Shown here: in pieces, positions 36,688 to 49,547 of the stretch | Layout of the letters: every line of letters starts with the position of its first letter | How positions within the stretch are numbered: the first letter of the stretch is position 1 | The notes under the pieces: model-generated | The model's database searches: none | What the model saw: only the letters and a program-made list of their open reading frames with translations | Told to the model about the DNA's origin: nothing | IMG/VR virus record: IMGVR_UViG_3300033067_000970 | Coordinates: 1-57,156 of that record | Length of the DNA: 57,156 nucleotides | Source: a virus | Lineage: Duplodnaviria; Caudoviricetes | Direction: 5' to 3' (one strand) | Program-made: the position numbers and the translations under genes

Positions 36688-39147
36688 TCACAACGACTCC
36701 TGCGCCCACCGGATGATCTTGTCCCAGTCCCAAGAGCCGTCCGGCAACTCGAACTCCTTCGGCTTCTTGGACCAGAATATCTCAACCGATTTGCCCAAGC
36801 GGCGGCGTCCGAGGCATGTCCACCCTTGGGAAAGCAGGTATCGCCTGATCTCCCACTTGGTCAAGACGCTCTCAGTAAGCGCCTCGATCTCGTCTCGTAG
36901 CCGCGAGAAGATGAGCAGTTCCTCCGTCACGTCCTCGCGCTGCGTCTCCTTCAAGGTCGCCTCGATGTCGCTGTCCTCGGCCGAGCGCGACATGGCGATC
37001 ATGTAGTCCCGCGCCTTCGTGAGCGGCGCGCGGCCGACAGGATCGAACTCGGGGTGCAACGGCATCTCGATCAGCCAGCGGCGCAGGGCGCCAGGCGACT
37101 CGTCGAGCGCCTTGAACAAGTCGACGAAGTAGCTGGGGCGCTTGCGGAGGTGCGACCGCACGTCCTCGGCGGTCTGGAAATCGGAGCGCAGGACGAAGTA
37201 GCGCCGGTCGTTGTTGTTGATCGGCAGCGCGTCGACGAAGTTGGTCAGCAGGACATAGGACTGCGTGTTCGGCACCTGGTAGTGCCCCTCGTATTTCACC
37301 CGCATGGCGATCACCGAGTTGGTGATGAGGGGCTTGATCGTGTTCATCACGTCATGGCGGTTGTTGCCATGCAGCTTCACTTCCTCGACCACGGCCAACT
37401 GCGAGCCCGACGCCCAGTCGTTGAACCCGCTTTCGAGCGTCTTGCCGTCGATCGTCTTCACGTTGTCCGACCCGAGCACCGCCCCCATGAGCGGTGTGAT
37501 GAAGGACTTGCCGTCGCCCTCGACGCCTTGCAACATGACCGCCCAATTGATGCGCCTGCCGCCTCGGGCGATGTGGCCGAGGAAGGAGAGCAACAGGTCG
37601 CGTTCTCGCGCGTCGGGGATCAGGTTGGCGAAATGGGCGTGAACGCGGCCGATGTTGATCTCGTCCATCTTCGTCAGGTCGCGCGGGACGGCGGGCACGA
37701 GATTGCGGCGGTAGGAGTTGACCACGGGGCGCCCCTGAAAGTGGAAGAAATCATCCTCGCCGGGCATGTAGACGAGGTGGTCGGCGGTGGGGATGTGCAT
37801 GGCGTTCAGGACGAACGTCGATGCGGGCGTGTCCGGCATCGTCTTTCCCGCGGCGCGCTGCGCCTCGGTAATCATCCGCCGGTTGAACTGCGAGTCGAAC
37901 CCCACCCTGGTCGACGACGAGCCTGACGGGACGTGGTAGAACTTGTCGCTCATCGTGAGGTAAGCCCACCCCTTCGCCCAGTTGGGGTCGTCGATGTCAC
38001 GGATGGCCAGCGGCATGATGGCCCTGGCGCGCGACTCGGAGAGCGGCGAGCCCTCGACGCGCCTCCAAGCGTTGCGGAATGCGCCGATGAGACGGTCGCG
38101 ATCAACCTGCCCGAGCGGCCCGATATCCATCGCCTTCTCGGCGGCGGCCTTCAAGTCTTCAACCGTCTGCGCCTTGGTGAACAGGCTGCGGGTATCGTTG
38201 ACGTTCTGGCGCGTGTCATCGTCAAGGATGGAGCGGCCCATCTTGATGATGTAGCGGGCCGTGACGACGCGGCGCGTCCCCTGCGACTCCTTGAACGACT
38301 TCCACTTCGCGTTGAGGACGTCTTCGGCATACTTGTCCGACTTGGCTGACCAGTCGTGCCATATGTCGAGCCCGTCGTCGCCGAACTGGTGTTGGAGCGC
38401 CATGCCGACGTGGAGCCAGACGTCGTAGTCGTCGGACGAGATGCTGTCGAGATAGCGCACGATCGTGTCTTTGTCGACGTCGACCGGGTCCTGCGCGAAG
38501 GCCAGGGCGTCGTCAGGAGACGCGGGGAGGACGGTGTGCGACTGCGCCCGCGTGTGGGCGACCTGGAGGGCCGGGCGCGTCCAACCCCTCTCCTGGGCAA
38601 ACTGGTCGAAAGCAGCGAGGACTTCTGCGCCGAGTTCGGCGGTCAGGATCGGCAGTTTCGACCGCAGCGTGTTCAGCGGCGTGTCGGCCGACCAGCGATA
38701 GGGCTTCCTTGTGTCCGGATGGACGGCCCACGCCACGAACTGCTGGCCTTCTCCGAGAATTTCGACCTTGTGGCGCGTCCCCTCGTGGTCGAGCCATGTG
38801 CTCTGCATCTTGCGGAAGGGCTCGTCCGTCCGATAGACGAGCAGCCGCTTGGGCGCCAAGCCGACGCGGACAGGCGCCAAGCCTAGCCGCTCGTGGCACC
38901 ACACTTCCAGATCGTCTGCCATCTCCTTGTCGGTGACGTCGATGTCGATCGCCGGAGTCGCGGCGGTGCGGATGCCAACGCCGTCATGCGCTCTCCCATT
39001 GGCGAGCCAGGCGTCGAGGTTTTTCTGTGACGACGGGACTTTCTGCCACCCGTCCATGCCGGGGTGCTTGAGGCCGGGCTTGATGGGGACGATCTCATAG
39101 CCCGCTTCGAGCAGGCGACGCCCGTGGAGCGCGAGGTAGTCCCTCAT
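36688..39147 (-). CDS. Primase-polymerase / PriCT-2 / SF3-like helicase fusion
   Basis: IVPI...AIDIDV prim-pol; YDVWLHVGMAL..WS..S.KY PriCT-2; GVEGDGKS P-loop. Confidence 0.9.
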   Translation of the reverse strand: MRDYLALHGRRLLEAGYEIVPIKPGLKHPGMDGWQKVPSSQKNLDAWLANGRAHDGVGIRTAATPAIDIDVTDKEMADDLEVWCHERLGLAPVRVGLAPKRLLVYRTDEPFRKMQSTWLDHEGTRHKVEILGEGQQFVAWAVHPDTRKPYRWSADTPLNTLRSKLPILTAELGAEVLAAFDQFAQERGWTRPALQVAHTRAQSHTVLPASPDDALAFAQDPVDVDKDTIVRYLDSISSDDYDVWLHVGMALQHQFGDDGLDIWHDWSAKSDKYAEDVLNAKWKSFKESQGTRRVVTARYIIKMGRSILDDDTRQNVNDTRSLFTKAQTVEDLKAAAEKAMDIGPLGQVDRDRLIGAFRNAWRRVEGSPLSESRARAIMPLAIRDIDDPNWAKGWAYLTMSDKFYHVPSGSSSTRVGFDSQFNRRMITEAQRAAGKTMPDTPASTFVLNAMHIPTADHLVYMPGEDDFFHFQGRPVVNSYRRNLVPAVPRDLTKMDEINIGRVHAHFANLIPDARERDLLLSFLGHIARGGRRINWAVMLQGVEGDGKSFITPLMGAVLGSDNVKTIDGKTLESGFNDWASGSQLAVVEEVKLHGNNRHDVMNTIKPLITNSVIAMRVKYEGHYQVPNTQSYVLLTNFVDALPINNNDRRYFVLRSDFQTAEDVRSHLRKRPSYFVDLFKALDESPGALRRWLIEMPLHPEFDPVGRAPLTKARDYMIAMSRSAEDSDIEATLKETQREDVTEELLIFSRLRDEIEALTESVLTKWEIRRYLLSQGWTCLGRRRLGKSVEIFWSKKPKEFELPDGSWDWDKIIRWAQESL

Positions 39148-40061
39148 ATGCCGCACCCCAAATCATCGCAAGGAAGATCGGGTTCGTTGGTCGGAGCGGG
39201 TCGTTCGGCCGCGACGTCAGCAAGTATGGCCGCATAGGCATACTTGGCGCCCTTGCGAAAAGTCTTGCCCGCCCCGTCTCCACGCGGCACCGCTTCTTGA
39301 GCGGCCCACCAATCAAGCGCGCCTGGGTGATCTTTCTCGACCTGCATAAGAGACGCGCGAGACTTCAAAAAACACCCGTCGCAGTTCCCTTCCCACGGAC
39401 CGGCAAGACGTAAATCGAAAGGCCGCGCTTTCCAAAATTGAAGCACGTCGATTTGTTCGACGCCTGCTTCAAACAGAGGGCAAATCACATCCCAACGATC
39501 TTTTTTGTTGCGCGCAGGATCGGTTGCTTTGACGACGCGGCCCGGCTCGTCCGCGCGGAGCCCGACTACGTTCGTCCACCGTTTCCAGCCGAACACGTCC
39601 ACGAGGTAGCGTTTGGCGGTTCTTATCTTGAGTTCGATCGTGCAAAACCGCGCGACCGGATTCGGAAGCGCGCTCTTGCGCGCCAACATATCCTTGAAAG
39701 GTTCGCCGTTTCGCGCGGCGCGCCTATAATCTGTCACGCGGTAGGACGGCTTGTCGTTCGCTCCCTCATACTCCAACCAGGTGATGGGGACGAGCCAGCG
39801 TTCCGATACATCGCGGACGAACTCCAGTGTGGGTTCCATCTCCTTGCCAGTGTTTTGAAACAGCACGACGACGTCGTCAGGGAGGACGCCATGATGCGAC
39901 TCCAAAATACGCCAAAGCATGTAGGCGCTGGTGCGCCCGCCTGAGAAACTAATGACCGCCGGGCCGGTGATGTGGAAAGGATCGGGGCGGTCGCGCGCCC
40001 AACCGTTCAGACCAACCGCGAGCCCGAGTTCGCGCAGCTTTTGCTCGAAATGGACAGGCAT
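39144..40061 (-). CDS. PAPS-reductase / PP-loop family enzyme (DndC-like superfamily)
   Basis: SFSGGRTS, FQNTGKE, RFCT.ELK, GLRADE, GNCDGC. Confidence 0.85.
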   Translation of the reverse strand: MPVHFEQKLRELGLAVGLNGWARDRPDPFHITGPAVISFSGGRTSAYMLWRILESHHGVLPDDVVVLFQNTGKEMEPTLEFVRDVSERWLVPITWLEYEGANDKPSYRVTDYRRAARNGEPFKDMLARKSALPNPVARFCTIELKIRTAKRYLVDVFGWKRWTNVVGLRADEPGRVVKATDPARNKKDRWDVICPLFEAGVEQIDVLQFWKARPFDLRLAGPWEGNCDGCFLKSRASLMQVEKDHPGALDWWAAQEAVPRGDGAGKTFRKGAKYAYAAILADVAAERPAPTNEPDLPCDDLGCGI

Positions 40062-40324
40062 CACTCACCCAACAGGTCTGAGGCTTTCACGGCGCCGTCC
40101 GTGGCGCTCTCGATCTTCTCCGCCAACTCGCGGGGGAGCGGCTTCTTCTTGTTGAGCCAGTTGGTCAGGCTGGACGGGTGCAGCCGGAGTCGGCGCGCCA
40201 TCGCGCTCGTCGTGCCTTGCGGCGACGCGAGCAACGCGGCGGTGCGTAGCAGATAGCGGCGGTGCTGGAACGCCTTGTCCGTATCAGGCACCTTGTCGAG
40301 CCAGGTGGGGGCGGGAACAGTCAT
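40061..40324 (-). CDS. Cro/YdaS-like HTH regulator
   Basis: MARRLRLHPSSLTNW...AEKIESATDGAVKASDL. Confidence 0.8.
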   Translation of the reverse strand: MTVPAPTWLDKVPDTDKAFQHRRYLLRTAALLASPQGTTSAMARRLRLHPSSLTNWLNKKKPLPRELAEKIESATDGAVKASDLLGE

Positions 40325-40328
40325 CGAA

Positions 40329-40412
40329 ATCCTCCGTGACCTCCCATATACCCCCTTGCGGACAGAAAATCAATCCGCTATATGGGTGACGCCAACCAAC
40401 CCCACGGAGGAT
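40329..40412. promoter_or_regulatory. Overlapping divergent promoters
   Basis: + strand TTGCGG-N17-TATATG; - strand TTGATT-N17-TATATG; both followed by CACGGAGGAT. Confidence 0.75.
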
Positions 40413-40419
40413 ATCGGAC

Positions 40420-40983
40420 ATGGCACTTGAGGACAAGATCGACGCCCTGACGGCGGCGATCAACAAGAACACCGAGATCGTGCGCGAGCACATCGCCCTG
40501 CTGAAGAATGCGCCGCTGCCTAGCGTCATGGCGCCGTCCAGCGAACTCGTCCAGACCGCGTCGGTCAACGTCGCCGTCGCCGCCGCAATCGCCCCCGATG
40601 GCAAGAAGCGCCGCGGTCGGCCGGCGAAGACGATCCAGCCCTCGGCGATCGAGCCCGAGGCCGAAGACGAGGAGCCCACCGACGCCGTCGCGTCCGAACC
40701 CGAACCCGAGCCGGAGCCCGAGCCTGAGCCTGAGCCGGAACCCGAGCCCGAGCCCGAACCCGAGCCGGAGCCTGAGCGCAAGATGGTGCCGACGTTCTCC
40801 TACGACGACCTCAAGGTCGAACTGACGATGGCGCTCAAGGTCATCGGCCGCGACAAGGTGAAGTCGATCATCTCCGACATCGGCGGCGTCGAGGCGTCGA
40901 AGGACCTTCACCCCGACGACTACGGCGACGTCGTCAAGGCGCTCCAACTCGCCGTCGAGGCGCACGACCCGGAGGAGGTGTGA
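40420..40983 (+). CDS. Replication-operon protein: N-terminal coiled coil, RRGRP motif, (EP)n linker, small helical C-terminal domain
   Basis: Strong RBS; architecture visible in the translation. Confidence 0.85.
   Translation: MALEDKIDALTAAINKNTEIVREHIALLKNAPLPSVMAPSSELVQTASVNVAVAAAIAPDGKKRRGRPAKTIQPSAIEPEAEDEEPTDAVASEPEPEPEPEPEPEPEPEPEPEPEPEPERKMVPTFSYDDLKVELTMALKVIGRDKVKSIISDIGGVEASKDLHPDDYGDVVKALQLAVEAHDPEEV
40694..40776 (+). repeat. 6-bp repeat encoding (Glu-Pro)n
   Basis: ga[ag]cc[cgt] tandem run. Confidence 0.92.
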
Positions 40984-40984
40984 C

Positions 40985-42163
40985 GTGAGCGAGCGCGCCC
41001 ACGCGGTCTTCTCGCCTTCGGCGGCGCATCGGTGGCTCCCCTGTCCGGGGAGCCTCCAGCCGAACCTACTCGCGGAGGGCGACGGCGACGGGTCGTCGCC
41101 CTACGCCGAGGAGGGCACCGCGGCGCACGCCCTGGCCGAGAAGATGCTGCGCGGCATGGACGTGGTCGGCGACCCGGTCATGCTCGACTACGTGCGTCAG
41201 TACGTCGACTGGGCGAACGAGGCGGCGGCCGACGCCGACCTGGTGCTGATCGAGGAGCGCGTGAACTTCTCGGCGTGGACGCCGCTGCCGAACCAGTTTG
41301 GCACGGCGGACCACGTCGCGATGCACTTCACGAAGATGGGCGGCGTCTGCACGATCACCGACCTCAAATACGGTATGGGCGTCCGAGTCCGCGCCCGCGA
41401 CAACCCGCAACTCATGCTCTATGCCCTCGGCGTCCTCGACGCCTACGACTTCATCGGCGACTTCAAGCGGTTCGACCTGCGTATCTGTCAGCCGCGCCTC
41501 GGCATGTTCGACACCTGGGAAGTCAGCCGGGCCGACCTGCTGGCGTTCGGCGAATACGTCAAGGAGCGGTCGGCTCTCGCGCTTGAGCCGAACGCCCCCC
41601 GCGTGGCGGGCGAGAAACAGTGCAAGTTCTGCAAGGTCAAGGCGTCCTGCCCGGCGCAGGTCGATCTGCTTCACCAGCTTGCCGAGGACACGTTCGAGGC
41701 GGTCGAGCCGACGACAGCCATCTCGGCGGCAGCGGCGGTCGATAGCCGCCCATCGCTCCCCGCCATCGCCGACATGACGGTCGCGCAGAAGGCGCGCATC
41801 CTGCCCTACCGGAAGACGGTCGAGAACTGGTTCAAGGCGATGGCCGAGGACCTGGAGCGCCGTGCCAACGACGGCGAGACGATCCCCGGCTACAAGATGG
41901 TGGCGGGGCGCTCGCGCCGCCAGTGGACCGATGAAGCGGGCTTGGCGACCACGCTCGCGACCTATAGCATCGACCCCTGGGATACGTCGCTCGTCGCGCC
42001 TTCCGAGGCCGAGCGCCGCATGATGAAGGCCGGTATGAAAAGCAAGGAGGCCAAGGCCGCGGTCGCGGCACTGACGACCAAGCCCCTCGGCAAGCCGACA
42101 CTCGTGCCTGACAGCGACGAGCGCGACGAGGACGACGCCGGGGATGTTTTCGACGCCGTGTGA
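40985..42163 (+). CDS. DUF2800 Cas4-like PD-(D/E)xK nuclease
   Basis: HAVFSPS.AHRW..CPGS, EGTAAH, FGTAD, DLKYG, CKFC...C. Confidence 0.9.
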   Translation: MSERAHAVFSPSAAHRWLPCPGSLQPNLLAEGDGDGSSPYAEEGTAAHALAEKMLRGMDVVGDPVMLDYVRQYVDWANEAAADADLVLIEERVNFSAWTPLPNQFGTADHVAMHFTKMGGVCTITDLKYGMGVRVRARDNPQLMLYALGVLDAYDFIGDFKRFDLRICQPRLGMFDTWEVSRADLLAFGEYVKERSALALEPNAPRVAGEKQCKFCKVKASCPAQVDLLHQLAEDTFEAVEPTTAISAAAAVDSRPSLPAIADMTVAQKARILPYRKTVENWFKAMAEDLERRANDGETIPGYKMVAGRSRRQWTDEAGLATTLATYSIDPWDTSLVAPSEAERRMMKAGMKSKEAKAAVAALTTKPLGKPTLVPDSDERDEDDAGDVFDAV

Positions 42164-42220
42164 CCGTCGCGGCGTCGTCGAAGACGACAGACGGTTTCAA
42201 CTGTGAAAGGTAAGACGACT

Positions 42221-42805
42221 ATGGCTCGCGAGAATCGTACGACGGTGAAGTCTGTGGAGAACGCCACTCTCTTTTCCGATGGGACCATCCTGCTGAAGAA
42301 CGTCCGGGCGTCCTACCCGCACGTCGTCACCCAGGGCAAGTTCGACGGCAAGGACAGCGGCTACTCCATCCAGGCGATGATGCCGAAGAAGTCCCACGCC
42401 AAGGCGATTGCCCTGGTGAACGAGCAGATCGAGAAGACCAAGACCGAGGCGAAGGTCAAGGTCGCGGCCGACAAGATCGCGTTCAAGGACGGCGACAACT
42501 CCGACAAGGACGCCTACGACGGCTGCATGGTCCTGTCGGCGCGTGAGACCAAGCGCCCCGCCCTGCGGGACGCGCGGAACGAGCGCATCGACGTCGACAA
42601 GGCGGACGGCATCTTCTACGGCGGCTGCTGGGTCAATGTTCTCGTCCGCCCATGGGCGCAGAACAACTCCTGGGGCAAGCGGATCAATTTCAATCTGCTG
42701 GCCGTCCAGAAGGTGCGTGACGACGAGGCGTTCGGCGAAGGCCGGATCACCGAGGACGAGATCGACGACACGTTCGCCGACGAGACCGAAGACCTCGACG
42801 TCTGA
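42221..42805 (+). CDS. DUF2815 / gp2.5-like ssDNA-binding protein
   Basis: VRASYP, FYGGCW, VQKVRDDEAFG, acidic tail. Confidence 0.88.
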   Translation: MARENRTTVKSVENATLFSDGTILLKNVRASYPHVVTQGKFDGKDSGYSIQAMMPKKSHAKAIALVNEQIEKTKTEAKVKVAADKIAFKDGDNSDKDAYDGCMVLSARETKRPALRDARNERIDVDKADGIFYGGCWVNVLVRPWAQNNSWGKRINFNLLAVQKVRDDEAFGEGRITEDEIDDTFADETEDLDV

Positions 42806-42814
42806 CGGAAGGAG

Positions 42815-42838
42815 GCCCCGCCTGGCAACGGGCGGGGC
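42815..42838 (+). other. GC-rich hairpin with GCAA tetraloop
   Basis: GCCCCGCCTG-GCAA-CGGGCGGGGC; no U tract. Confidence 0.7.
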
Positions 42839-42847
42839 TAACCGAGC

Positions 42848-43663
42848 ATGACAATCCTCGCCCACGACCACGAGACGGCGAGCGAGGTCGACCTGAAAGA
42901 AGAAGGGCTCGACCGCTACGCCTCGCACCCGTCAACGCGCGTCCTGATGACGGCCTACAAGATCGACGACGGGCCGGTGCGGCTCTGGACCGCGGAGCGC
43001 GGCAGGGCGTTCCCGTTGACCGAGATGCTTCTCGACCCGAAAGTCATCAAGGTGGCGTTCAACGCCCAGTTCGAGCGCACGATCGCCCGCAAGGTGCTCA
43101 AGATCGACACGCCCTACACCAACTGGCGATGCACCATGGCGCTCGCCTACTCGCAGTCCTACGTCGGCAACCTGGAGGACATCGGCAAGCAGATGGGCTT
43201 GTCGGAGGACAAACAGAAGAACAAGCGCGGCAAGGCGCTGATCCGCATGTTCTGCTCCCCCGACCGCAAGACCGGGCGCATCTGGAAGCCACACGAGAAG
43301 CCCGAGGAGTGGGAGGAGTTCAAGCGTTACTGCGTGCAGGACGTGATCGCCGAGGAGCATATCCGCGAGCGGCTTGAGCGGTTCCCGATCGCTGACCGCG
43401 AGTGGGACCTCTACGAGTTGGACCAGCGCATCAACGACACCGGCCTGCCGATCGACATGCGCTTCGTCAGCAACGCCATGCGGCTGTCCAAAGTCCGGCG
43501 CGACGCCCTGTTCGCCGAGATCAAGGCGATCAGCGGCGTGGCCAATCCAGGGGCGCCGGCACAGATGCTCGCCTGGTTGAAGACGCAAGGCTACCCTTTC
43601 GACGACATGCAGAAGGACACCGTGGTCAAGGCGCTGAAGGAGCGAGACGAGTATGACAGTTGA
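42848..43663 (+). CDS. Family A DNA polymerase, N-terminal part (3'-5' exonuclease to start of thumb)
   Basis: DHET ExoI, AFNAQFER ExoII, YCVQDV ExoIII, DQRINDTG. Confidence 0.9.
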   Translation: MTILAHDHETASEVDLKEEGLDRYASHPSTRVLMTAYKIDDGPVRLWTAERGRAFPLTEMLLDPKVIKVAFNAQFERTIARKVLKIDTPYTNWRCTMALAYSQSYVGNLEDIGKQMGLSEDKQKNKRGKALIRMFCSPDRKTGRIWKPHEKPEEWEEFKRYCVQDVIAEEHIRERLERFPIADREWDLYELDQRINDTGLPIDMRFVSNAMRLSKVRRDALFAEIKAISGVANPGAPAQMLAWLKTQGYPFDDMQKDTVVKALKERDEYDS

Positions 43664-44816
43664 CGTGATTCACGCGGACTGCCGCTGCGCCTTGGCGGCG
43701 ATGGCGTCGGAAAGCATCGACTCCGTGGTGACGGACCCGCCCTACCACCTGACCACCGGCAAGAAGGGCGGCACTGGCGAAGCCTCTGTCGACCTCGATA
43801 GCCCATACGGGCGATCGCGCATCACCGCCGGCTTCATGGGCAAGCAATGGGACGGCGGCGACGTCGCGTTCCAGCCAGACCTCTGGCGAGCCGTTCTGCG
43901 CGTCCTCAAGCCCGGCGGCCACGTCCTCGCCTTCGGAGGCACACGCACCTACCACCGTCTCGCCTGCGCGATCGAGGACGCCGGTTTCGAGATACGCGAT
44001 CAGATCGGTTGGCTCTACGGCACCGGCTTCCCGAAAAGTCACAACCTCGATGGCGACTGGCGGGGCTGGGGCACCGCCTTGAAACCCGCCTGGGAACCCA
44101 TCGTCGTCGCTCGCAAACCTCTCATCGGCACCGTCGCCGAAAACGTCCAAACTCATCGCGTCGGCGCCCTGAACATCAACGGATGCCGTATCCCAACCGA
44201 CGACAATCTGAACGGGGGAGCCTACGCCGCCGAAGGTGGCAGGTCCGTCTCGGGTTCCCTTCACGGCGGAAGCGGCATGAACCAACCCGGAAAGACGACT
44301 GGCAAGGAGTTCACACCTCCCCCCGGCCGATGGCCCGCCAACATCATCCACGACGGATCAGACGAAGTCATCGCGGCGTTTCCGGCCAACGCGGGAGGCG
44401 GATACGGAACCGAAAACAAAACATCCAGCGGGGTTTACGGCGCGTATTCAGGGGCGACTAAGGGGCGCCTTGTTGGATTTGGAGATGCGGGCTCCGCAGC
44501 ACGCTTCTTCTACACCGCAAAAGCATCCAAAGCCGAACGCCAAGGCTCCAAACACCCAACAGTCAAACCCCTCGCTCTCATGCGATACCTCTGCCGCCTC
44601 GTCACGCCGCCCGGCGGCACTGTCCTCGACCCCTTCGCCGGCACCGGCACGACCGGACAAGCCGCCCGAGAAGAAGGCTTCAACGCCGTCCTCATCGAGC
44701 GCGAAGACGAATACGTCGCCGACATCCGACGCCGTCTTGGCATCGAGGATAAAATTTCCGACGCGCTTCGCGGTCTAGGCGCCGCAGTCGATGCCAACAT
44801 TGGGGCACGCTCGTGA
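43653..44816 (+). CDS. DNA amino-methyltransferase (beta class, DPPY)
   Basis: VTDPPY, HPTVKP, LDPFAGTGTT. Confidence 0.95.
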   Translation: MTVDVIHADCRCALAAMASESIDSVVTDPPYHLTTGKKGGTGEASVDLDSPYGRSRITAGFMGKQWDGGDVAFQPDLWRAVLRVLKPGGHVLAFGGTRTYHRLACAIEDAGFEIRDQIGWLYGTGFPKSHNLDGDWRGWGTALKPAWEPIVVARKPLIGTVAENVQTHRVGALNINGCRIPTDDNLNGGAYAAEGGRSVSGSLHGGSGMNQPGKTTGKEFTPPPGRWPANIIHDGSDEVIAAFPANAGGGYGTENKTSSGVYGAYSGATKGRLVGFGDAGSAARFFYTAKASKAERQGSKHPTVKPLALMRYLCRLVTPPGGTVLDPFAGTGTTGQAAREEGFNAVLIEREDEYVADIRRRLGIEDKISDALRGLGAAVDANIGARS

Positions 44817-46072
44817 CCCCGGAAGCCGTCGCCGTCCTACGTCTCTATCAGAAGGCCACACGCGCCAGCGTGAAGAAATACAACGCCGTCGACAAGGGGA
44901 TCGGTGAAGGCGACAGGCTCCGCAACACCTTCCAGTTCGCCGGGGCGTCACGCACGAACCGTTGGGCCGGGAGGCGCTTCCAGCCGACCAACCTGACCCG
45001 GACGCCCAAGAGCCTTGAAAACGTCCTGCACGAAGCCACCGATGCGATCCGCAACGGCGACGATGACTACCTCGACGTGCTCATCGGCGAGCCCATGGAC
45101 GCCCTGGCGGGCTGCCTGCGCTCCGCGATCCGGGCGCAGAACGGCTACGAACTCAGGGCGTGCGACCTCAACGCCATCGAGACCCGCGTCATCGGCTGGC
45201 TGGCGGGATGCGAGAAGCTGCTGGACGTCTTTCGTCAAGGGCTCGACCCCTACAAGGCGTTCGCGGTCTATCTGTTCGACGTGCCCTATGAACAGGTGAC
45301 GCGGACCCAACGGAACGACAGTAAGCCGCCTACGTTGGGCTGCGGCTTCGGGCTCTCTGCCGGGGAGCAGGTCGGCGACAAGAAGACCGGCCTTCTCGGC
45401 TACGCCGACAAGATGGGCATTCCCTTCACGCCTGAGTTCGCCAAGCGCGCCGTCCGCATCTATCGGGAGACCTACGCCGAGGTGCCGCAGTTCTGGAACG
45501 CCATCGGCGACGCGGCCAGGGTGTGCGTGAAGACCGGCAAGACGCAGGAGATCAACCAATGGCTGCGGTTCGAGCGCCGCGGTTCCTACCTCGCGCTCCG
45601 GCTACCCTCGGGCCGCTACATCTACTACCTCCACCCGAAGATGCTGACGACCTGGTGGGCCAAGCACCCCTACACGGGCGCGATCAAGTCGCTCGGCCCC
45701 GACGAGCCCCGCGCGCAGCGCGCCAAGGCGAAAGGGTGGGAAGTGTTCGACCGCCTGAGCCTGACCTACATGGGCAAGCCGCAGAACAAGACGGGTTGGG
45801 AGCGTGTCATCACCCATCCCGCCAAAGTTTGTGAAAACGCGGTGCAGGCCGTAGCGCGCGACGTCCTCAAGGAAGGGATGCTGCGCGCCGACGCGGACGG
45901 CTTCAACATCGTCCTCCACGTCTATGACGAAATCTGCTGCGAGGAGCGCATCACCGACCGCTACCACTCGGTCGAACGCCTCGCCGAGCACATGAGCGCG
46001 CCGATCGACTGGGCGCCCGGCTTGCCGCTCGGAGCGGCGGGCTGGTCCGGCCCGTTCTACAAGAAGGATTGA
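44813..46072 (+). CDS. Family A DNA polymerase, C-terminal polymerase part
   Basis: GASRTNRWAG, motif A DLNAIE.R, motif B R...K...L, ENAVQAVARD, motif C HVYDE. Confidence 0.92.
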   Translation: MTPEAVAVLRLYQKATRASVKKYNAVDKGIGEGDRLRNTFQFAGASRTNRWAGRRFQPTNLTRTPKSLENVLHEATDAIRNGDDDYLDVLIGEPMDALAGCLRSAIRAQNGYELRACDLNAIETRVIGWLAGCEKLLDVFRQGLDPYKAFAVYLFDVPYEQVTRTQRNDSKPPTLGCGFGLSAGEQVGDKKTGLLGYADKMGIPFTPEFAKRAVRIYRETYAEVPQFWNAIGDAARVCVKTGKTQEINQWLRFERRGSYLALRLPSGRYIYYLHPKMLTTWWAKHPYTGAIKSLGPDEPRAQRAKAKGWEVFDRLSLTYMGKPQNKTGWERVITHPAKVCENAVQAVARDVLKEGMLRADADGFNIVLHVYDEICCEERITDRYHSVERLAEHMSAPIDWAPGLPLGAAGWSGPFYKKD

Positions 46073-46075
46073 GGG

Positions 46076-46306
46076 TTGAAACAGATATCGCTTGCGTCCG
46101 TCTATGGCCGCATCCGCATCGCCATCAACAAGGCCGGCACGCAGAAGGCGTGGGCCGAGGAGATCGGCGTCTCGCCGCAGTTCTTGAACGACGTCCTGCA
46201 CGGCAAACGCCAGCCGTCCGACCGGATGTTGAAACCGCTTGGCATAATCCGTCAAACGACGTATAGCGTGGAAGAGGAACCGACCGATGCCGCTCATTCT
46301 CGGTAA
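46076..46306 (+). CDS. XRE/Cro-like HTH protein
   Basis: TQKAWAEEIGVSPQFLNDVLHGKR. Confidence 0.75.
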   Translation: MKQISLASVYGRIRIAINKAGTQKAWAEEIGVSPQFLNDVLHGKRQPSDRMLKPLGIIRQTTYSVEEEPTDAAHSR

Positions 46307-46724
46307 ACCGTGGACATTCGCCGACCGCGACAAGCTGCGGGTGCTATGGGCGACGCAAGCGTCCGCCGCGGAGATCGGCGAGATGCTCGGCGGCCGGACG
46401 AAGAACTCCATCTTGGGGGAGGCCCACCGCATGAAACTGCCACTGCGCGCGACTCCGGCCAATCTTGCCAAGGAGGCGAAGAAGTCCAGCGCGCCCGTCG
46501 TGCGTATCGCGGGAGATGGCCTGACGCTGCCGCTGCCGCCGTCCGTCGCGCACATGGACCCAAAACAGTTCGGCCCTGCGCTCCCCAGCGTGCCGCGCTC
46601 ATGCACCTGGCTGGTGAGCCATGACCGCCCGTGGCGTGCCTGTGAGGCCGTCCTAGCGCCGGGGAAACCCTACTGTGTCGCGCACGCTGCGATCGCCTAT
46701 GTCGTGTTGGAGAAGAGGGCGTGA
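46287..46724 (+). CDS. gcrA: GcrA-like regulator
   Basis: WT...L..LW...SAAEI..LGGRTKNSILG.AHR.KL N-terminus; C.W...C...PYC..H..IAY C-terminus. Confidence 0.85.
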   Translation: MPLILGKPWTFADRDKLRVLWATQASAAEIGEMLGGRTKNSILGEAHRMKLPLRATPANLAKEAKKSSAPVVRIAGDGLTLPLPPSVAHMDPKQFGPALPSVPRSCTWLVSHDRPWRACEAVLAPGKPYCVAHAAIAYVVLEKRA

Positions 46725-47689
46725 TTCTGGTCGGAGACACGCGGAAGGTTCTGAAGACGCTTCCTGTCGAAAGCGTCCAGTGTTGCGTCACGTCGCCCCC
46801 TTACTTCGGCCTACGCGACTACGGCGTCGATGGTCAGATCGGGCTTGAGCCATCGCCCGACGAGTATGTCGCCGAATTGGTGGCTGTGTTCCGTGAAGTG
46901 CGGCGTGTGCTGCGGGCGGATGGGACGCTGTGGCTTAACCTGGGAGACAGCTACGCTCGCCAAGGGGGAGAGGGCGGCCACGGGCCTAATGCTCAAGTCG
47001 GCAACACAAAATCGCTTGAACAACGGCGGATGCTTGTCCCGCCGTCTGGGACAAAGCCCAAAGACCTCCTCATGATCCCCGCCCGCGTCGCGCTGGCCCT
47101 CCAGGCGGACGGCTGGTGGCTCCGCTCCGACATCATCTGGCACAAGCCCAACCCGATGCCCGAGAGCGTGACCGACCGACCTACGTCGGCGCACGAGCAT
47201 GTGTTTCTGCTGACCAAGAGCGCGCGGTATTTCTACGACGCGGAGGCGGTGAAGGAAGAGGCTTGTTATCCAGTTGGATCCCGCGAGGACGTGCCGAGGG
47301 GAGGGTTTCAAGGCAAAGGCTCGGATCCCAGGGGGCAAGAAGCATTCCGCGCCATTCGCGACACCCGCAACCTCCGCAACGTCTGGACCATCGCCACTCA
47401 GCCTTTCTCTGGCGCTCACTTCGCCACCATGCCGCCCGATCTGGTGGAGCGGTGCATCAAGGCAGGCTCACGCCCCGGTGACATGATCCTCGACCCGTTT
47501 GGCGGCGCGGGCACGACCGGGCTTGTCGCGCAGCGTCTAGGCCGCGACTACACGCTGATTGAACTCAATCCGACATACGCCGACATGGCGCGAGACCGGA
47601 TCAACGCTGAAACATCAGGGGTGGAGGGTGCTTTGGCGCGGCTAGGCAAGGAGGTGGAGAAGAATGCGCGAATCCGTCATCGAGCGTAA
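46721..47689 (+). CDS. DNA methyltransferase (beta class, SPPY; likely N4-cytosine)
   Basis: VTSPPY, HFATMP, LDPFGGAGTT. Confidence 0.93.
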   Translation: MILVGDTRKVLKTLPVESVQCCVTSPPYFGLRDYGVDGQIGLEPSPDEYVAELVAVFREVRRVLRADGTLWLNLGDSYARQGGEGGHGPNAQVGNTKSLEQRRMLVPPSGTKPKDLLMIPARVALALQADGWWLRSDIIWHKPNPMPESVTDRPTSAHEHVFLLTKSARYFYDAEAVKEEACYPVGSREDVPRGGFQGKGSDPRGQEAFRAIRDTRNLRNVWTIATQPFSGAHFATMPPDLVERCIKAGSRPGDMILDPFGGAGTTGLVAQRLGRDYTLIELNPTYADMARDRINAETSGVEGALARLGKEVEKNARIRHRA

Positions 47690-47930
47690 GGCGTGCGAGG
47701 CCGCGCGTTCGCTCGGCTGGGACAACCGGAAGATGGACAGCCGTCGCGGCGATCCTGACCGCTTGTTCTTCCGGAAAGGCGTCTATGTCTGGTGCGAGTT
47801 CAAGAAGCCCGGCAAGACGCCGACGCCCCTCCAACGGCGTCGGATGCTCGACCTCAAGGAGCGCGGCGAGCGCGTCCTGTGGGCCGACAACGTCGAGGAC
47901 GTGATCGCCTACCTGAAAGACGCCATGTGA
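47664..47930 (+). CDS. VRR-NUC nuclease
   Basis: ESVIE...G.PDR...EFKKPG....LQ. Confidence 0.85.
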   Translation: MRESVIERKACEAARSLGWDNRKMDSRRGDPDRLFFRKGVYVWCEFKKPGKTPTPLQRRRMLDLKERGERVLWADNVEDVIAYLKDAM

Positions 47931-49288
47931 CCGTCAGGCGTCTCCACGGCTATCAGCGCAGCGCCGTCAACTGGCTGCTGGATAACCCCGAAGGCGGCCT
48001 TCTCGCCGACCTCGGGCTCGGCAAGACGGCGATCATGCTCGACCTGCTGGCGTCGCTCAAACTGGTCTGGGACCTCCGCCGGGCGCTCGTCATCGGGCCG
48101 CTCCGCGTCGTCAACGCGACCTGGCCGGACGAGATCGCCGCGTGGCGCGTGCCGCTGTCCTGGTCGATCATAGGAGGCTCCGCAGCGCAGCGTCAGGCGG
48201 CCATGGAGGAGCCGACTGACCTCCACCTGGTCAACCGGGAGAACGTCGCGTGGCTGGTCGGCCAGCACGTCAAGAAGGTCAAGGGCAAGTGGACCCTAGT
48301 CAAGCCGTGGCCCTACGACGTCGTGATCGTGGACGAACTGACGTCCTTCGGCGACTCGCAGTCGGAGCGGTTCAAGACCCTCGCCCGCGTCCGGTCTCAG
48401 ATCAAGCGGTTCCACGGCATGACCGCGACGCCGGCCGCCGAGGGCTACATGAAGACCTTCGCCATGACCTACCTGCACGACCGCGGCGCGCGGTTCGGCA
48501 AAGGCGTCACGGCCTTTCGGGAGCGCTATTTCAACCAGAACCCCTACACCCGGCAGTGGACGCTGCGAGACGGCGCCGACGAGGAAATCCTCGCCAAGCT
48601 GCAAGGGGCCTTCCTGGTGATGCGTGCTGACGATCACCTGCCGCGCGACAAGCCCACCTATATCAACCGGCGGGTCCACCTGACCGACGCCGAGATGGCC
48701 CAGTACAAGGCGTTCGAGCGGGACTTCTTCACCGAGACACGCGACGGGACGGTCGTCGAGGCCGTCCACGCCGCGGCGCTCGCGACCAAGATGTTGCAAC
48801 TGTCGAGCGGCTTCATCTACGACGCCGATCGCCGGGCGCACTGGTTCCACGATCACAAAATCGACGAGTTGCGCCAGCTTGCCGAGGAGGCGGAAGGGGA
48901 AAACCTGATCGTCGCTTACTGGTTCAAGCCAAGTTTGGCGAAACTCCAGAAGGCGTTCCCTCACGCCGTCGTGATGGATCGCGAGGGAAAAGCTTTGCGA
49001 GACTGGAACTCTGGAAAAACTCGCATGCTTTTGATGCATCCGATGTCGGCAGGGTTCGGGCTGAACGCTCAATTTGGTGGTGCGACGATCGTGTTCTTTG
49101 ACATTCCGGCGCCCTACGAAGCGTATTTCCAGATGATCGGGCGAGTCGATCGCCAGGGGCAGATCAGGCCGGTGAAGGTCTATCACCTCGTCGCGGCGGA
49201 CACGGACGACGAACTGGTCGCCGTGCCACGCCTCGCCGCGAAGAAGAACGTGTCGGACTACTACCTGGATCGGCTCAAGAGCATCTAA
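47927..49288 (+). CDS. SNF2-like helicase
   Basis: GTG 47927; DLGLGKT, VDE, TATP, GLN.Q, GRVDRQGQ. Confidence 0.92.
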   Translation: MTVRRLHGYQRSAVNWLLDNPEGGLLADLGLGKTAIMLDLLASLKLVWDLRRALVIGPLRVVNATWPDEIAAWRVPLSWSIIGGSAAQRQAAMEEPTDLHLVNRENVAWLVGQHVKKVKGKWTLVKPWPYDVVIVDELTSFGDSQSERFKTLARVRSQIKRFHGMTATPAAEGYMKTFAMTYLHDRGARFGKGVTAFRERYFNQNPYTRQWTLRDGADEEILAKLQGAFLVMRADDHLPRDKPTYINRRVHLTDAEMAQYKAFERDFFTETRDGTVVEAVHAAALATKMLQLSSGFIYDADRRAHWFHDHKIDELRQLAEEAEGENLIVAYWFKPSLAKLQKAFPHAVVMDREGKALRDWNSGKTRMLLMHPMSAGFGLNAQFGGATIVFFDIPAPYEAYFQMIGRVDRQGQIRPVKVYHLVAADTDDELVAVPRLAAKKNVSDYYLDRLKSI

Positions 49289-49547
49289 GCCGCTTGTAGT
49301 AGTGCTTGGAGCACAGCCGTGTGCTGGCGTTGACCACCGCGTCGCGACAGTCCGGCGACACGCAGGGGAGCCGCCAGCGTTCCTCGGTGTGCGCCTGGCA
49401 GTAGCGGGACTTCTTGAACGAACGCGAGGCGCACCCCGGCTCGGCGCAAGTCTTCGACGGCCATCGCTCGCGGATGTAGCACCGCCGGCACTTGCCTGTG
49501 GCGTAGTGAACGCGCGAGCATCCCGGCGTGGAGCAATAACGGATCAC
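49275..49547 (-). CDS. Triple Zn-binding-repeat protein
   Basis: Three C-x4-C...C-x2-[CH] units. Confidence 0.65.
   Translation of the reverse strand: MIRYCSTPGCSRVHYATGKCRRCYIRERWPSKTCAEPGCASRSFKKSRYCQAHTEERWRLPCVSPDCRDAVVNASTRLCSKHYYKRLRCS

Follow-up and report, generated by a model that had tools for sequence, protein, structure and literature searches.

Family A DNA polymerases (PolA) are textbook single-chain enzymes. In the stretch of DNA considered here, the whole of the Caudoviricetes record IMGVR_UViG_3300033067_000970 of IMG/VR (57,156 bp, CheckV completeness 100%, referred to below as the window), the polA gene is present as two open reading frames (ORFs) with an intact gene for a DNA methyltransferase (MTase) lying between them. 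The locus raises the question of whether the two pieces still build one working polymerase and, if so, whether the MTase was the agent that divided it. As judged by comparison with homologues, the two-ORF polymerase is real and most likely functional as two pieces, and the favoured interpretation, which is held with reasonable though not high confidence, is that it acts as a heterodimer whose gene underwent fission first and received the MTase later at the junction. The three genes are as follows:

42848..43663, + strand: polA N-piece, 271 aa, ATG start; 3'-5' exonuclease domain and roughly 100 residues from the start of the polymerase domain; its end is in a loop placed in the thumb
43653..44816, + strand: beta-class N6/N4 DNA MTase (PF01555), 387 aa, ATG start; intact and stand-alone, between both polA genes
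44813..46072, + strand: polA C-piece (PF00476), 419 aa, GTG start; the remaining thumb, the palm, the fingers and motifs A, B and C

Two ORFs compared with one intact polymerase

An earlier note on this DNA had the exonuclease half ending at 43663 and the polymerase half starting at 44813 in one frame, and both the ORF list and the reading of the junctions agree with this. The start coordinates of the two pieces both equal 2 modulo 3, hence they share a reading frame, from which that of the MTase differs. The N-piece ends in ...DTVVKALKERDEYDS, the C-piece opens with (M)TPEAVAVLRLYQKATRASVKKY, and 1.15 kb separates the two ORFs, neither of which contains an internal stop.

Pfam recognises the C-piece as PF00476 (51.7 bits, cut-off 34.3) and assigns no family to the N-piece, and both pieces match the same PHROGs family, phrog_17 'DNA polymerase', at profile positions 670-919 and 936-1232, respectively. 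The best polA relatives in GenBank phages, as found with tblastn, are the PolAs of Chi-like (Casjensviridae-type) phages, which are 44-51% identical. In vB_Pae-SS2019XI the N-piece (q1-265) and the C-piece (q4-419) match a single annotated polymerase gene, 15 codons apart. Intact PolAs of Chi-like phages align over their whole length with the two pieces of the window, their N-terminal portion being 47-52% identical to the N-piece, and Taq and Klenow align to the C-piece across motifs A and B.

The exonuclease residues D7, E9, F75, E76, Y161 and D165 are invariant in 21 N-pieces and are kept in the window, and D7, E9, E76, Y161 and D165 presumably belong to the Exo I-III motifs. Likewise, the polymerase residues D118, E123, R167, K171, D372 and E373, which are invariant in 41 sequences, are kept in the C-piece and are taken here to represent motifs A, B and C. 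The retention of catalytic motifs described in the earlier note extends to every invariant column in both halves, which together equal an intact PolA that is broken in a length-variable loop. Compared with the Klenow-like (exonuclease plus polymerase) enzymes of PF00476, the motifs and the exonuclease are present and it is the single polypeptide that has been given up for two ORFs. There is one PF00476 match in the record and no match to PF00136 (PolB), and the split PolA is the sole polymerase of a record rated 100% complete.

Such a gene could conceivably be dead, whether as a pseudogene, disrupted in a phage that is defective or depends on its host, or as a chimera of assembly, with the ORFs as remnants. 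The layout has been seen on one contig, and degraded relatives do exist, with a truncated polA in L063 and L074 and frameshifts in L072 and L159 (L numbers denote polA loci of the survey described below). These points are opposed by the absence of internal stops, by the retention of all invariant catalytic columns, by a break that costs no conserved residue and by start and stop codons that overlap precisely at both junctions. Moreover, the halves are 59-61% identical to their relatives, as intact genes are among themselves, the two-piece form persists over clusters 40% apart in sequence, and there is no other polymerase in a record rated complete. A dead gene is therefore regarded as very unlikely.

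Position of the break

The alignment of the linker region indicates that the N-piece stops directly after the conserved ...KDTVxKxL(K/R)E, at KALKERDE, and that the C-piece opens at the conserved (V/L)TPEA..LRLRQ. Between these two conserved blocks the intact relatives have anything from 2 to about 55 residues, and hence the cut falls within an indel-rich linker and no conserved residue is lost. An AlphaFold model of an intact relative, L002, which is 47-52% identical to the window, has a mean pLDDT of 94.5 and finds Klenow and Bst as its top Foldseek matches over the full length (TM 0.6-0.7, E 1e-18 to 1e-16); the Klenow-like fold is that of L002, the window pieces themselves having been folded only as a complex. 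The residues of L002 that are equivalent to the break, 271-275, are found in a seven-residue loop (271-277) between helices 258-270 and 278-290.

The break is about 100 residues past the last exonuclease motif and about 115 residues ahead of motif A. The N-piece continues for 106 residues beyond D165 and covers four helices of the polymerase domain (helices 185-270 of the L002 model). Hence, the pieces do not correspond to an 'exo' and a 'pol' subunit, and it is the polymerase domain itself that has been divided. A profile alignment to Aquifex Pol I spans the break region, and a search of the PDB with the N-piece sequence gave only chance matches (E>0.3), so that the assignment to the thumb rests on the L002 model, the Aquifex alignment and the topology of related enzymes. 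By the Klenow/Taq topology, and by the description in Czernecki et al. 2023 (PMC10201439), the loop is presumed to belong to the thumb, near the site of the T7 thioredoxin-binding loop, and on this model we place the break in a thumb loop. The earlier note had viewed the two ends as nearly contiguous thumb sequence, which agrees with both the linker alignment and the L002 model.

Re-association of the two pieces

Because the loop that is cut varies in length and is exposed to solvent, the two pieces would be expected to come together again by way of their large native intramolecular interface, without any need for splicing. Prediction of the N- and C-pieces as a complex gave a score of 0.91 (0.90-0.91 over three runs), with about 244 contacts, of which at least 96% are common to the runs, and a partner pLDDT of at least 88. 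Three controls gave 0.00, 0.44 and 0.00. Of solved complexes, 58 of 80 reach the mark applied to such scores, as do 2 of 110 mismatched pairs. The alignments behind the N+C prediction were self-supplied. The model supports re-association by its likeness to a native interface, which is no proof of binding, and the best reading of the two ORFs, given their equivalence to an intact PolA, is that they produce a heterodimer.

The sole replicative polymerase, of family A and of the Chi-like phage type, would thus be built from two gene products. The 271-aa piece would contribute the proofreading exonuclease together with the thumb's ascending arm and tip helices, and the 419-aa piece the descending helix of the thumb, the palm and the fingers.

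A single-chain polymerase would still be made if the interruption were removed after transcription or translation, by means of an MTase-carrying intron, a split intein or ribosomal bypass. The two halves are in the same frame, their virtual junction is seamless, and phage polymerase genes are classic hosts of introns and inteins (Dassa et al. 2009, PMC2677866). Against this, Rfam, whose library includes intron families, gave no match at E<=1 within 42000-47000, a scan that a divergent intron might escape. Past the homology with intact enzymes, the N-piece has only 3-6 further residues and the C-piece none, which leaves no space for intein fragments; none of the fragments that mark split-intein fractured genes were found at the new termini, and the gene in the gap matches PF01555 only. 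Moreover, the MTase has its own frame and its own ribosome-binding site, its coding sequence overlaps those of both pieces, the cargo-free split relatives use an ATG of their own for the second ORF, and the 1.16 kb of the gap is far larger than the bypass of T4 gene 60, which spans about 50 nt. The earlier note saw no intron or intein signature, which agrees with these results, and removal of the interruption by any of these routes is considered extremely unlikely.

Recurrence of the break in other phages

A sample of 242 polA loci, of which 229 are unique, was fetched from IMG/VR, metagenome contigs and GTDB, and the counts that follow apply among the matches listed. At the linker, 213 of the 229 are intact. 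Five loci (5/229), which belong to another clade than the window, have the break without cargo:

L082:6998-9074, L083:6995-9056, L084:7001-9062, L085:6992-9077 and L087:6998-9068: cargo-free split loci, two overlapping ORFs

In these the ATG of the second ORF overlaps the first stop by 8-14 nt, and in a quick tree they form one clade (support 99) nested among the intact L086 and L088. Their N-pieces end in acidic tails (…DVDD, …DDDE, …DEDE); an acidic tail at the presumed thumb tip recalls what we take to be a comparable feature, the acidic C-termini that dock onto T7 polymerase.

In one further locus, L065 (L065:7793-8649), 881 nt of cargo unrelated to the MTase interrupt polA at this loop. 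Two ORFs occupy the gap, one of 128 aa and one of 156 aa, in the latter of which a lipoprotein-like signal segment is duplicated, and Pfam returned for these cargo ORFs only sub-threshold matches to DUF6491/DUF6234. Of the remaining loci, L072 has a frame change somewhat 3' of the linker, L109 is interrupted elsewhere and not at the linker, and eight have no detectable C-part, in seven cases from too little contig. The same split is therefore found with no cargo in five loci, with other cargo in one and with MTase cargo in the window only.

A length-restricted protein search with the N-piece returned 20 other proteins. Fifteen protein clusters (P0007, P0008, P0010-P0019, P0021; 264-273 aa, 32-38% identical) terminate where the N-piece does and have acidic tails. 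On the quick tree at least four changes of the split state are required, and the break recurs in at least three lineages.

The gene is also interrupted at other positions. P0004/P0271 (388-391 aa) and P0159 (447 aa), with a longest contig of 57923, represent a close relative (57% identity); they are intact at the thumb loop and are broken at a second site directly before motif A (…SAIRAPGA stop / MTEEYELRVCDLNAIE…). P0159 additionally contains, inside motif B, an insert of about 135 aa with Cys first and His-Asn-Cys last, which by eye resembles a mini-intein and carries no Pfam flag. Interruptions of 0.5-2.6 kb elsewhere in the C-part of polA are seen in L109, L127, L135, L146, L170 and L178, in frame in L127, L135, L146 and L178 and with stops in L170; they suggest inteins or endonuclease genes, and polA is an insertion hot spot. 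In two gut-type loci (L063:2556-3932 and L074:6983-8434) polA is cut off after the N-part or after motif A and is fused to unrelated sequence, and these are probably degraded elements.

The order of fission and insertion

The nearest relatives of the window are themselves in two pieces. The best homologues of the C-piece, P0143 (61% identity, 423 aa), P0144 (60%, 421 aa) and P0150 (55%, 423 aa), all start M(L)TPEA at the same residue, and the best homologues of the N-piece, P0002 and P0003 (59%), end at the same site. Next among the C-piece homologues come P0145-P0149 (55-57%), each an intact protein (697-702 aa). P0003 and P0143 have a common longest contig of 58,552 nt, as do P0262 and P0270 with one of 11,469 nt. 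The tail of P0003 (…R-E-C-stop) and the head of P0143 (M-L-T) are readable from one string, GAA TGC TGA / ATG CTG AC (GAATGCTGAC), and the reading of GAA TGC TGA as ATG CTG AC would explain the extra Leu of P0143. The two ORFs thus appear to overlap directly by 7 nt, with no gene between them. For the other tails of the sister clade ATGA overlaps are possible, which are less specific than that of P0003/P0143.

The quick tree has 49 rows. A smaller, careful tree, built from the joined halves, unites the window with P0003+P0143 and P0262+P0270 in a single clade (81/97), and a single origin is recovered in 84% of 200 bootstrap trees. As the nearest relatives are already two-piece and the termini of P0003/P0143 fit a 7-nt overlap, the split probably predates the MTase. 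The gene fission would have taken place in an ancestor common to the nearest relatives, whose ORFs appear to have remained in direct overlap. A putative orphan MTase gene, of a type often found in this replication module, would later have entered the ORF junction in the window lineage and adopted the stop/start overlap, a sequence of events that is considered probable. The earlier note had described a polymerase split by a methyltransferase, a description that is not sustained in the light of the cargo-free break in L082-L085 and L087, the two-piece state of P0002/P0003 with P0143/P0144/P0150 and the grouping of the window with split forms (81/97).

The converse order is that insertion of the MTase itself made the split. 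A mobile or illegitimately recombined cassette of 1161 nt would have entered the thumb-loop codons of an intact polA, where an out-of-frame stop ended the N-piece, a pre-existing in-frame Val GTG became a start and the loop tolerated the break. When 43652-44812 is taken out (1161 nt, divisible by 3), the frame is restored as ...KALKERDE/VTPEAV..., with the linker length of P0004 and a gapless alignment to it, and this fits a clean insertion equally well. Several intact relatives carry Val or Leu directly before the conserved Thr, and TGAC is found at both junctions (ATGAC at 43653, GTGAC at 44813). Independent breaks at the loop, as in L065 and the P0017 clade, make convergence with the sister clade possible, and the quick tree does not resolve the window as sister to the split forms; its C-part version has an unresolved trichotomy of the window with the intact P0145-P0147 and groups the intact P0152 with the split P0144.

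These trees and the clean removal weigh against fission before insertion, and further points have to be set beside them. The absence of cargo in the sisters is codon logic for one pair, and the tails …IGT-stop, …TGQ-stop and …IVG-stop would fit an overlap onto an MTase start (M-T…) equally well. The support for the split-form clade is only moderate (81/97). The layout of an MTase in polA occurs on one metagenomic contig, and each of the three proteins has one member on one contig. As for the heterodimer, the complex score may reflect memory of single-chain PolA structures, the halves being those of one fold with solved relatives. A scan of the + strand from 40300 to 49500 for promoter and terminator consensus found none, which is uninformative.

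What opposes an origin of the split by insertion is, above all, that the closest relatives of both halves are split at the identical residue and are united with the window in the careful tree (81/97). In addition, there are no terminal repeats, no target duplication longer than 4-5 nt and no recombinase or endonuclease beside the MTase, and the 4-nt repeat may be chance. None of 80 related MTase loci is inside polA, and MTases of this family are not known to home into genes. Insertion as the cause of the split is accordingly viewed as possible but unlikely, and fission first remains the preferred reading.

No relative with the same layout was found in single-protein or alignment-based scans of IMG/VR. 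No locus more than 52% identical to the N-piece was found in IMG/VR, in GTDB genomes (2 loci) or in metagenome contigs (best 51% among the matches listed), and in GenBank phages the identity to the N-piece is at most 51%.

The inserted methyltransferase

The MTase matches PF01555 with 103.8 bits (cut-off 26.7) and keeps 111 of the 111 invariant columns of a 14-sequence alignment, including D28-P29-P30-Y31 and F328/G330/G332. From the order of its motifs, with the DPPY motif IV ahead of the AdoMet FxGxG, it is taken to be of the beta class. The family is very large, with at least 8000 scored candidates, all of them significant. The best homologue, P0023, is 71% identical, and the best GenBank matches (45-51%) are from actinophages and from Caulobacter, Rhizobium and Klebsiella phages. 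CcrM was considered as an identity both for this enzyme and for a second MTase encoded downstream and was rejected, since their scores against NCBIfam NF050803 (69.4 and 106.4 bits, respectively) are far below the 830 bits or more of that equivalog.

The MTase has a codon style foreign to that of the window, and the distinct style reported in the earlier note can be put into numbers. The GC content at third codon positions (GC3) is 0.73 for the MTase vs 0.91 for the N-piece and 0.88 for the C-piece. Its third-position GC skew is -0.52, a value more extreme than that of any other among the 38 long + strand ORFs that pass a GC3 filter (mean -0.05, sd 0.18).

None of the 229 other unique polA loci (among the matches listed) has an MTase inside polA and none of the 80 closest IMG/VR MTase loci has its MTase flanked by both polA halves, so that the arrangement is unique to the window within this sample. 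Seven of these 80 loci are near at least one gene of this replication module. Homologues of the MTase are found 3' of an intact polA, in the same module, in L242 (50-55%, directly before VRR-NUC) and in L168 (52%, 1.4 kb after polA). At L242:10672-12081 the homologue matches in two pieces (q3-132 and q136-385) about 220 nt apart, which is either an extra segment or an interruption in that copy.

A search for repeats or mobile-element ends flanking the MTase gave only matches of 20 nt or less, none of them at the junctions except TGAC. The neighbours of the MTase on both sides are polymerase pieces, and in terms of sequence it is probably a secondary passenger at a gene junction. Its product probably shields phage DNA from host restriction.

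Expression across the junctions

The MTase overlaps both halves, on its 3' side through GTGA, just as the earlier note had it. The elements at the two junctions are these, the hexamer having been read directly from the sequence:

43653..43663, + strand: N-piece/MTase overlap, 11 nt; the N-piece end TAT GAC AGT TGA is the MTase start ATG ACA GTT GA
43637..43642, + strand: Shine-Dalgarno-like hexamer AAGGAG, 10 nt 5' of the MTase ATG; its codons are those of the conserved Lys-Glu in KALKE
44813..44816, + strand: MTase/C-piece overlap, 4 nt, GTGA; the C-piece GTG lies on the MTase TGA (44814-44816)

The TGA stop of the N-piece is at 43661-43663, and the MTase ATG (43653) begins 11 nt inside the N-piece. 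GTG 44813 is the earliest start codon in the open frame of the C-piece, and no strong ribosome-binding site precedes it, the region 5' of the GTG offering only GGGG at 44802-44805. The three ORFs are presumably on one transcript. With its GTG inside the MTase stop and without a good ribosome-binding site, the C-piece probably needs termination-reinitiation by ribosomes that are finishing the MTase. Translational coupling is plausible from the tight start/stop overlaps. The earlier note had proposed a heterodimer whose second subunit is coupled to the MTase; the heterodimer stands as the best reading, and for the coupling the overlaps are only of a permissive kind.

A more elaborate arrangement can be envisaged, in which translation of the MTase gates synthesis of the C-piece through GTGA and the MTase itself rides with the heterodimer at the open thumb tip, methylating nascent DNA at the fork. 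If true, this would be a phage-encoded, replication-coupled methylation machine, and the polymerase would not survive an imprecise loss of the MTase, such that the cargo would be evolutionarily locked in. Such an arrangement is improbable, and the physical Pol-MTase complex that it entails, which the earlier note had also raised, is unlikely to the same degree.

Genomic context

The polymerase genes form part of a replication module, whose other members were assigned with Pfam and, downstream, also with PHROGs and by synteny:

40985..42805, + strand: upstream replication-module genes, with a DUF2800 PD-(D/E)XK nuclease (40985-42163) and an Enc34-type ssDNA-binding protein (SSB; 42203-42805)
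46076..49288, + strand: downstream genes, with an HTH protein, a GcrA-like protein, a second N6/N4 MTase (46721-47689), a VRR-NUC-type endonuclease (47664-47930) and an SNF2 helicase (47792-49288)

The order DUF2800 nuclease, Enc34-type SSB, PolA, VRR-NUC and SNF2 helicase is the same in eight relatives examined, and in a ninth, on a short contig, the SSB-PolA portion alone is visible. Between the SSB stop and the ATG of the N-piece (42807-42847) there is GGAAGGAGG and, after it, a GC-rich hairpin (GGCCCCGCC / loop / GGGCGGGGC, about 42814-42838), which could be a regulatory stem or a structure that draws a distant Shine-Dalgarno sequence close to the start codon. Directly 5' of the DUF2800 nuclease, 40420-40983 encodes a 187-aa ORF with about 17 Pro-Glu dipeptides in a run (EPEPEPEP…) and no family match. 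Divergent from the polymerase module, 36688-40064 on the - strand holds a primase-like ORF of 822 aa (phrog_1156) and a PAPS-reductase-like ORF of 306 aa (phrog_424).

Within 46287-47689, the second N6/N4 MTase (322 aa, GC3 0.72) comes directly after the GcrA-like protein (PF07750), the two ORFs overlapping by 4 nt. L242, a 59.5-kb contig that is binned with a Mesorhizobium metagenome-assembled genome, has a 53% homologue directly 3' of its intact polA. The GcrA-like/second MTase pair and L242 together hint at an alphaproteobacterial host.

Comparison with known systems

The published precedent for a divided PolA is the exo/pol gene fission in S-SBP1-like T7-like cyanophages, called the first PolA split by Czernecki et al. 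2023 (Nucleic Acids Res 51:4488, PMC10201439), which arose by a +1 frameshift and left adjacent genes with nothing between them. As in the window, there are two genes without intein or intron and the second start overlaps the end of the first (in the window the MTase intervenes), and the predicted complex superposes on the single-chain enzyme with the new termini exposed to solvent. The own ATG of the second ORF, as seen in the cargo-free loci, is the argument used in that paper for gene fission over frameshifting.

The S-SBP1 break is at the exo/pol border, whereas that of the window lies about 100 residues further, inside the polymerase domain, and the window stands apart from the S-SBP1 type in break position, gene adjacency and the T7-like cluster. 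At K+4 of motif B (consensus KPAxLGxGY), which by our reading equals position B3 of PMC10201439, the window has Leu175, as opposed to the Tyr of the T7-like cluster, Leu being that of the SPO2-like and KPP25-like clusters. Unlike S-SBP1, the window belongs to the Chi-like subfamily, its break appears to recur in at least three lineages and a 1.16-kb MTase gene separates its two genes.

The intact PolAs of Chi-like phages (Casjensviridae), namely vB_Pae-SS2019XI, Pectobacterium phage MA11 and Salmonella phage Chi, have 44-52% identity over both pieces and reside in the same replication module; unlike in the window, each is encoded by a single ORF (about 680-700 aa) that no other gene interrupts. 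Polymerase swapping in Casjensviridae has been described by Yutin et al. 2024 (PMC11348598), in whose passages concerned no split polymerase appears. Across titles, abstracts and passages, with subscription journals and supplements outside the search, no MTase gene inside polA and no split Chi-like PolA was found in the literature.

In T4-like phages, intein-less 'genes in pieces' are produced by homing endonuclease genes, as with Aeh1 nrdA/mobE and the split gp43 of Aeromonas phages. A further category is that of the 'fractured genes' that carry split inteins (Dassa et al. 2009, PMC2677866). Both resemble the window in that an essential replication gene exists as two ORFs with a free-standing gene in the gap, function being presumed to come from association of the subunits. 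The window is unlike them in that its cargo is a methyltransferase rather than a nuclease, there are no intein fragments and the break probably predates the cargo. The same general thumb region takes large insertions in other PolAs, such as the thioredoxin-binding loop of T7 gp5 and the thumb-tip insertion of about 100 aa in phiKMV-like PolAs (PMC10201439), and relatives of the window have up to about 53 extra residues. The T7 gp5 and phiKMV-like insertions are in-frame protein, whereas in the window the chain is broken.

Significance

The two-piece PolA at this loop is a recurrent natural variant, for which the T7-like split of 2023 is the only published natural precedent. A second, unrelated PolA lineage has thus been cut, here inside the polymerase domain, and the break is a repeated one. 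The repeated cutting at a loop placed in the thumb identifies this loop as a natural permissive site, which would be useful for engineering split or insert-bearing polymerases and which bears on the acquisition of processivity modules such as the T7 thioredoxin-binding loop. An ORF junction within an essential gene may, moreover, act as a landing pad for an accessory (anti-restriction) gene, from which the cargo would be lost only by very precise deletion. For annotation, the consequence is that split polymerases will be overlooked or given the wrong size by gene callers and in polymerase-based phage phylogenies.

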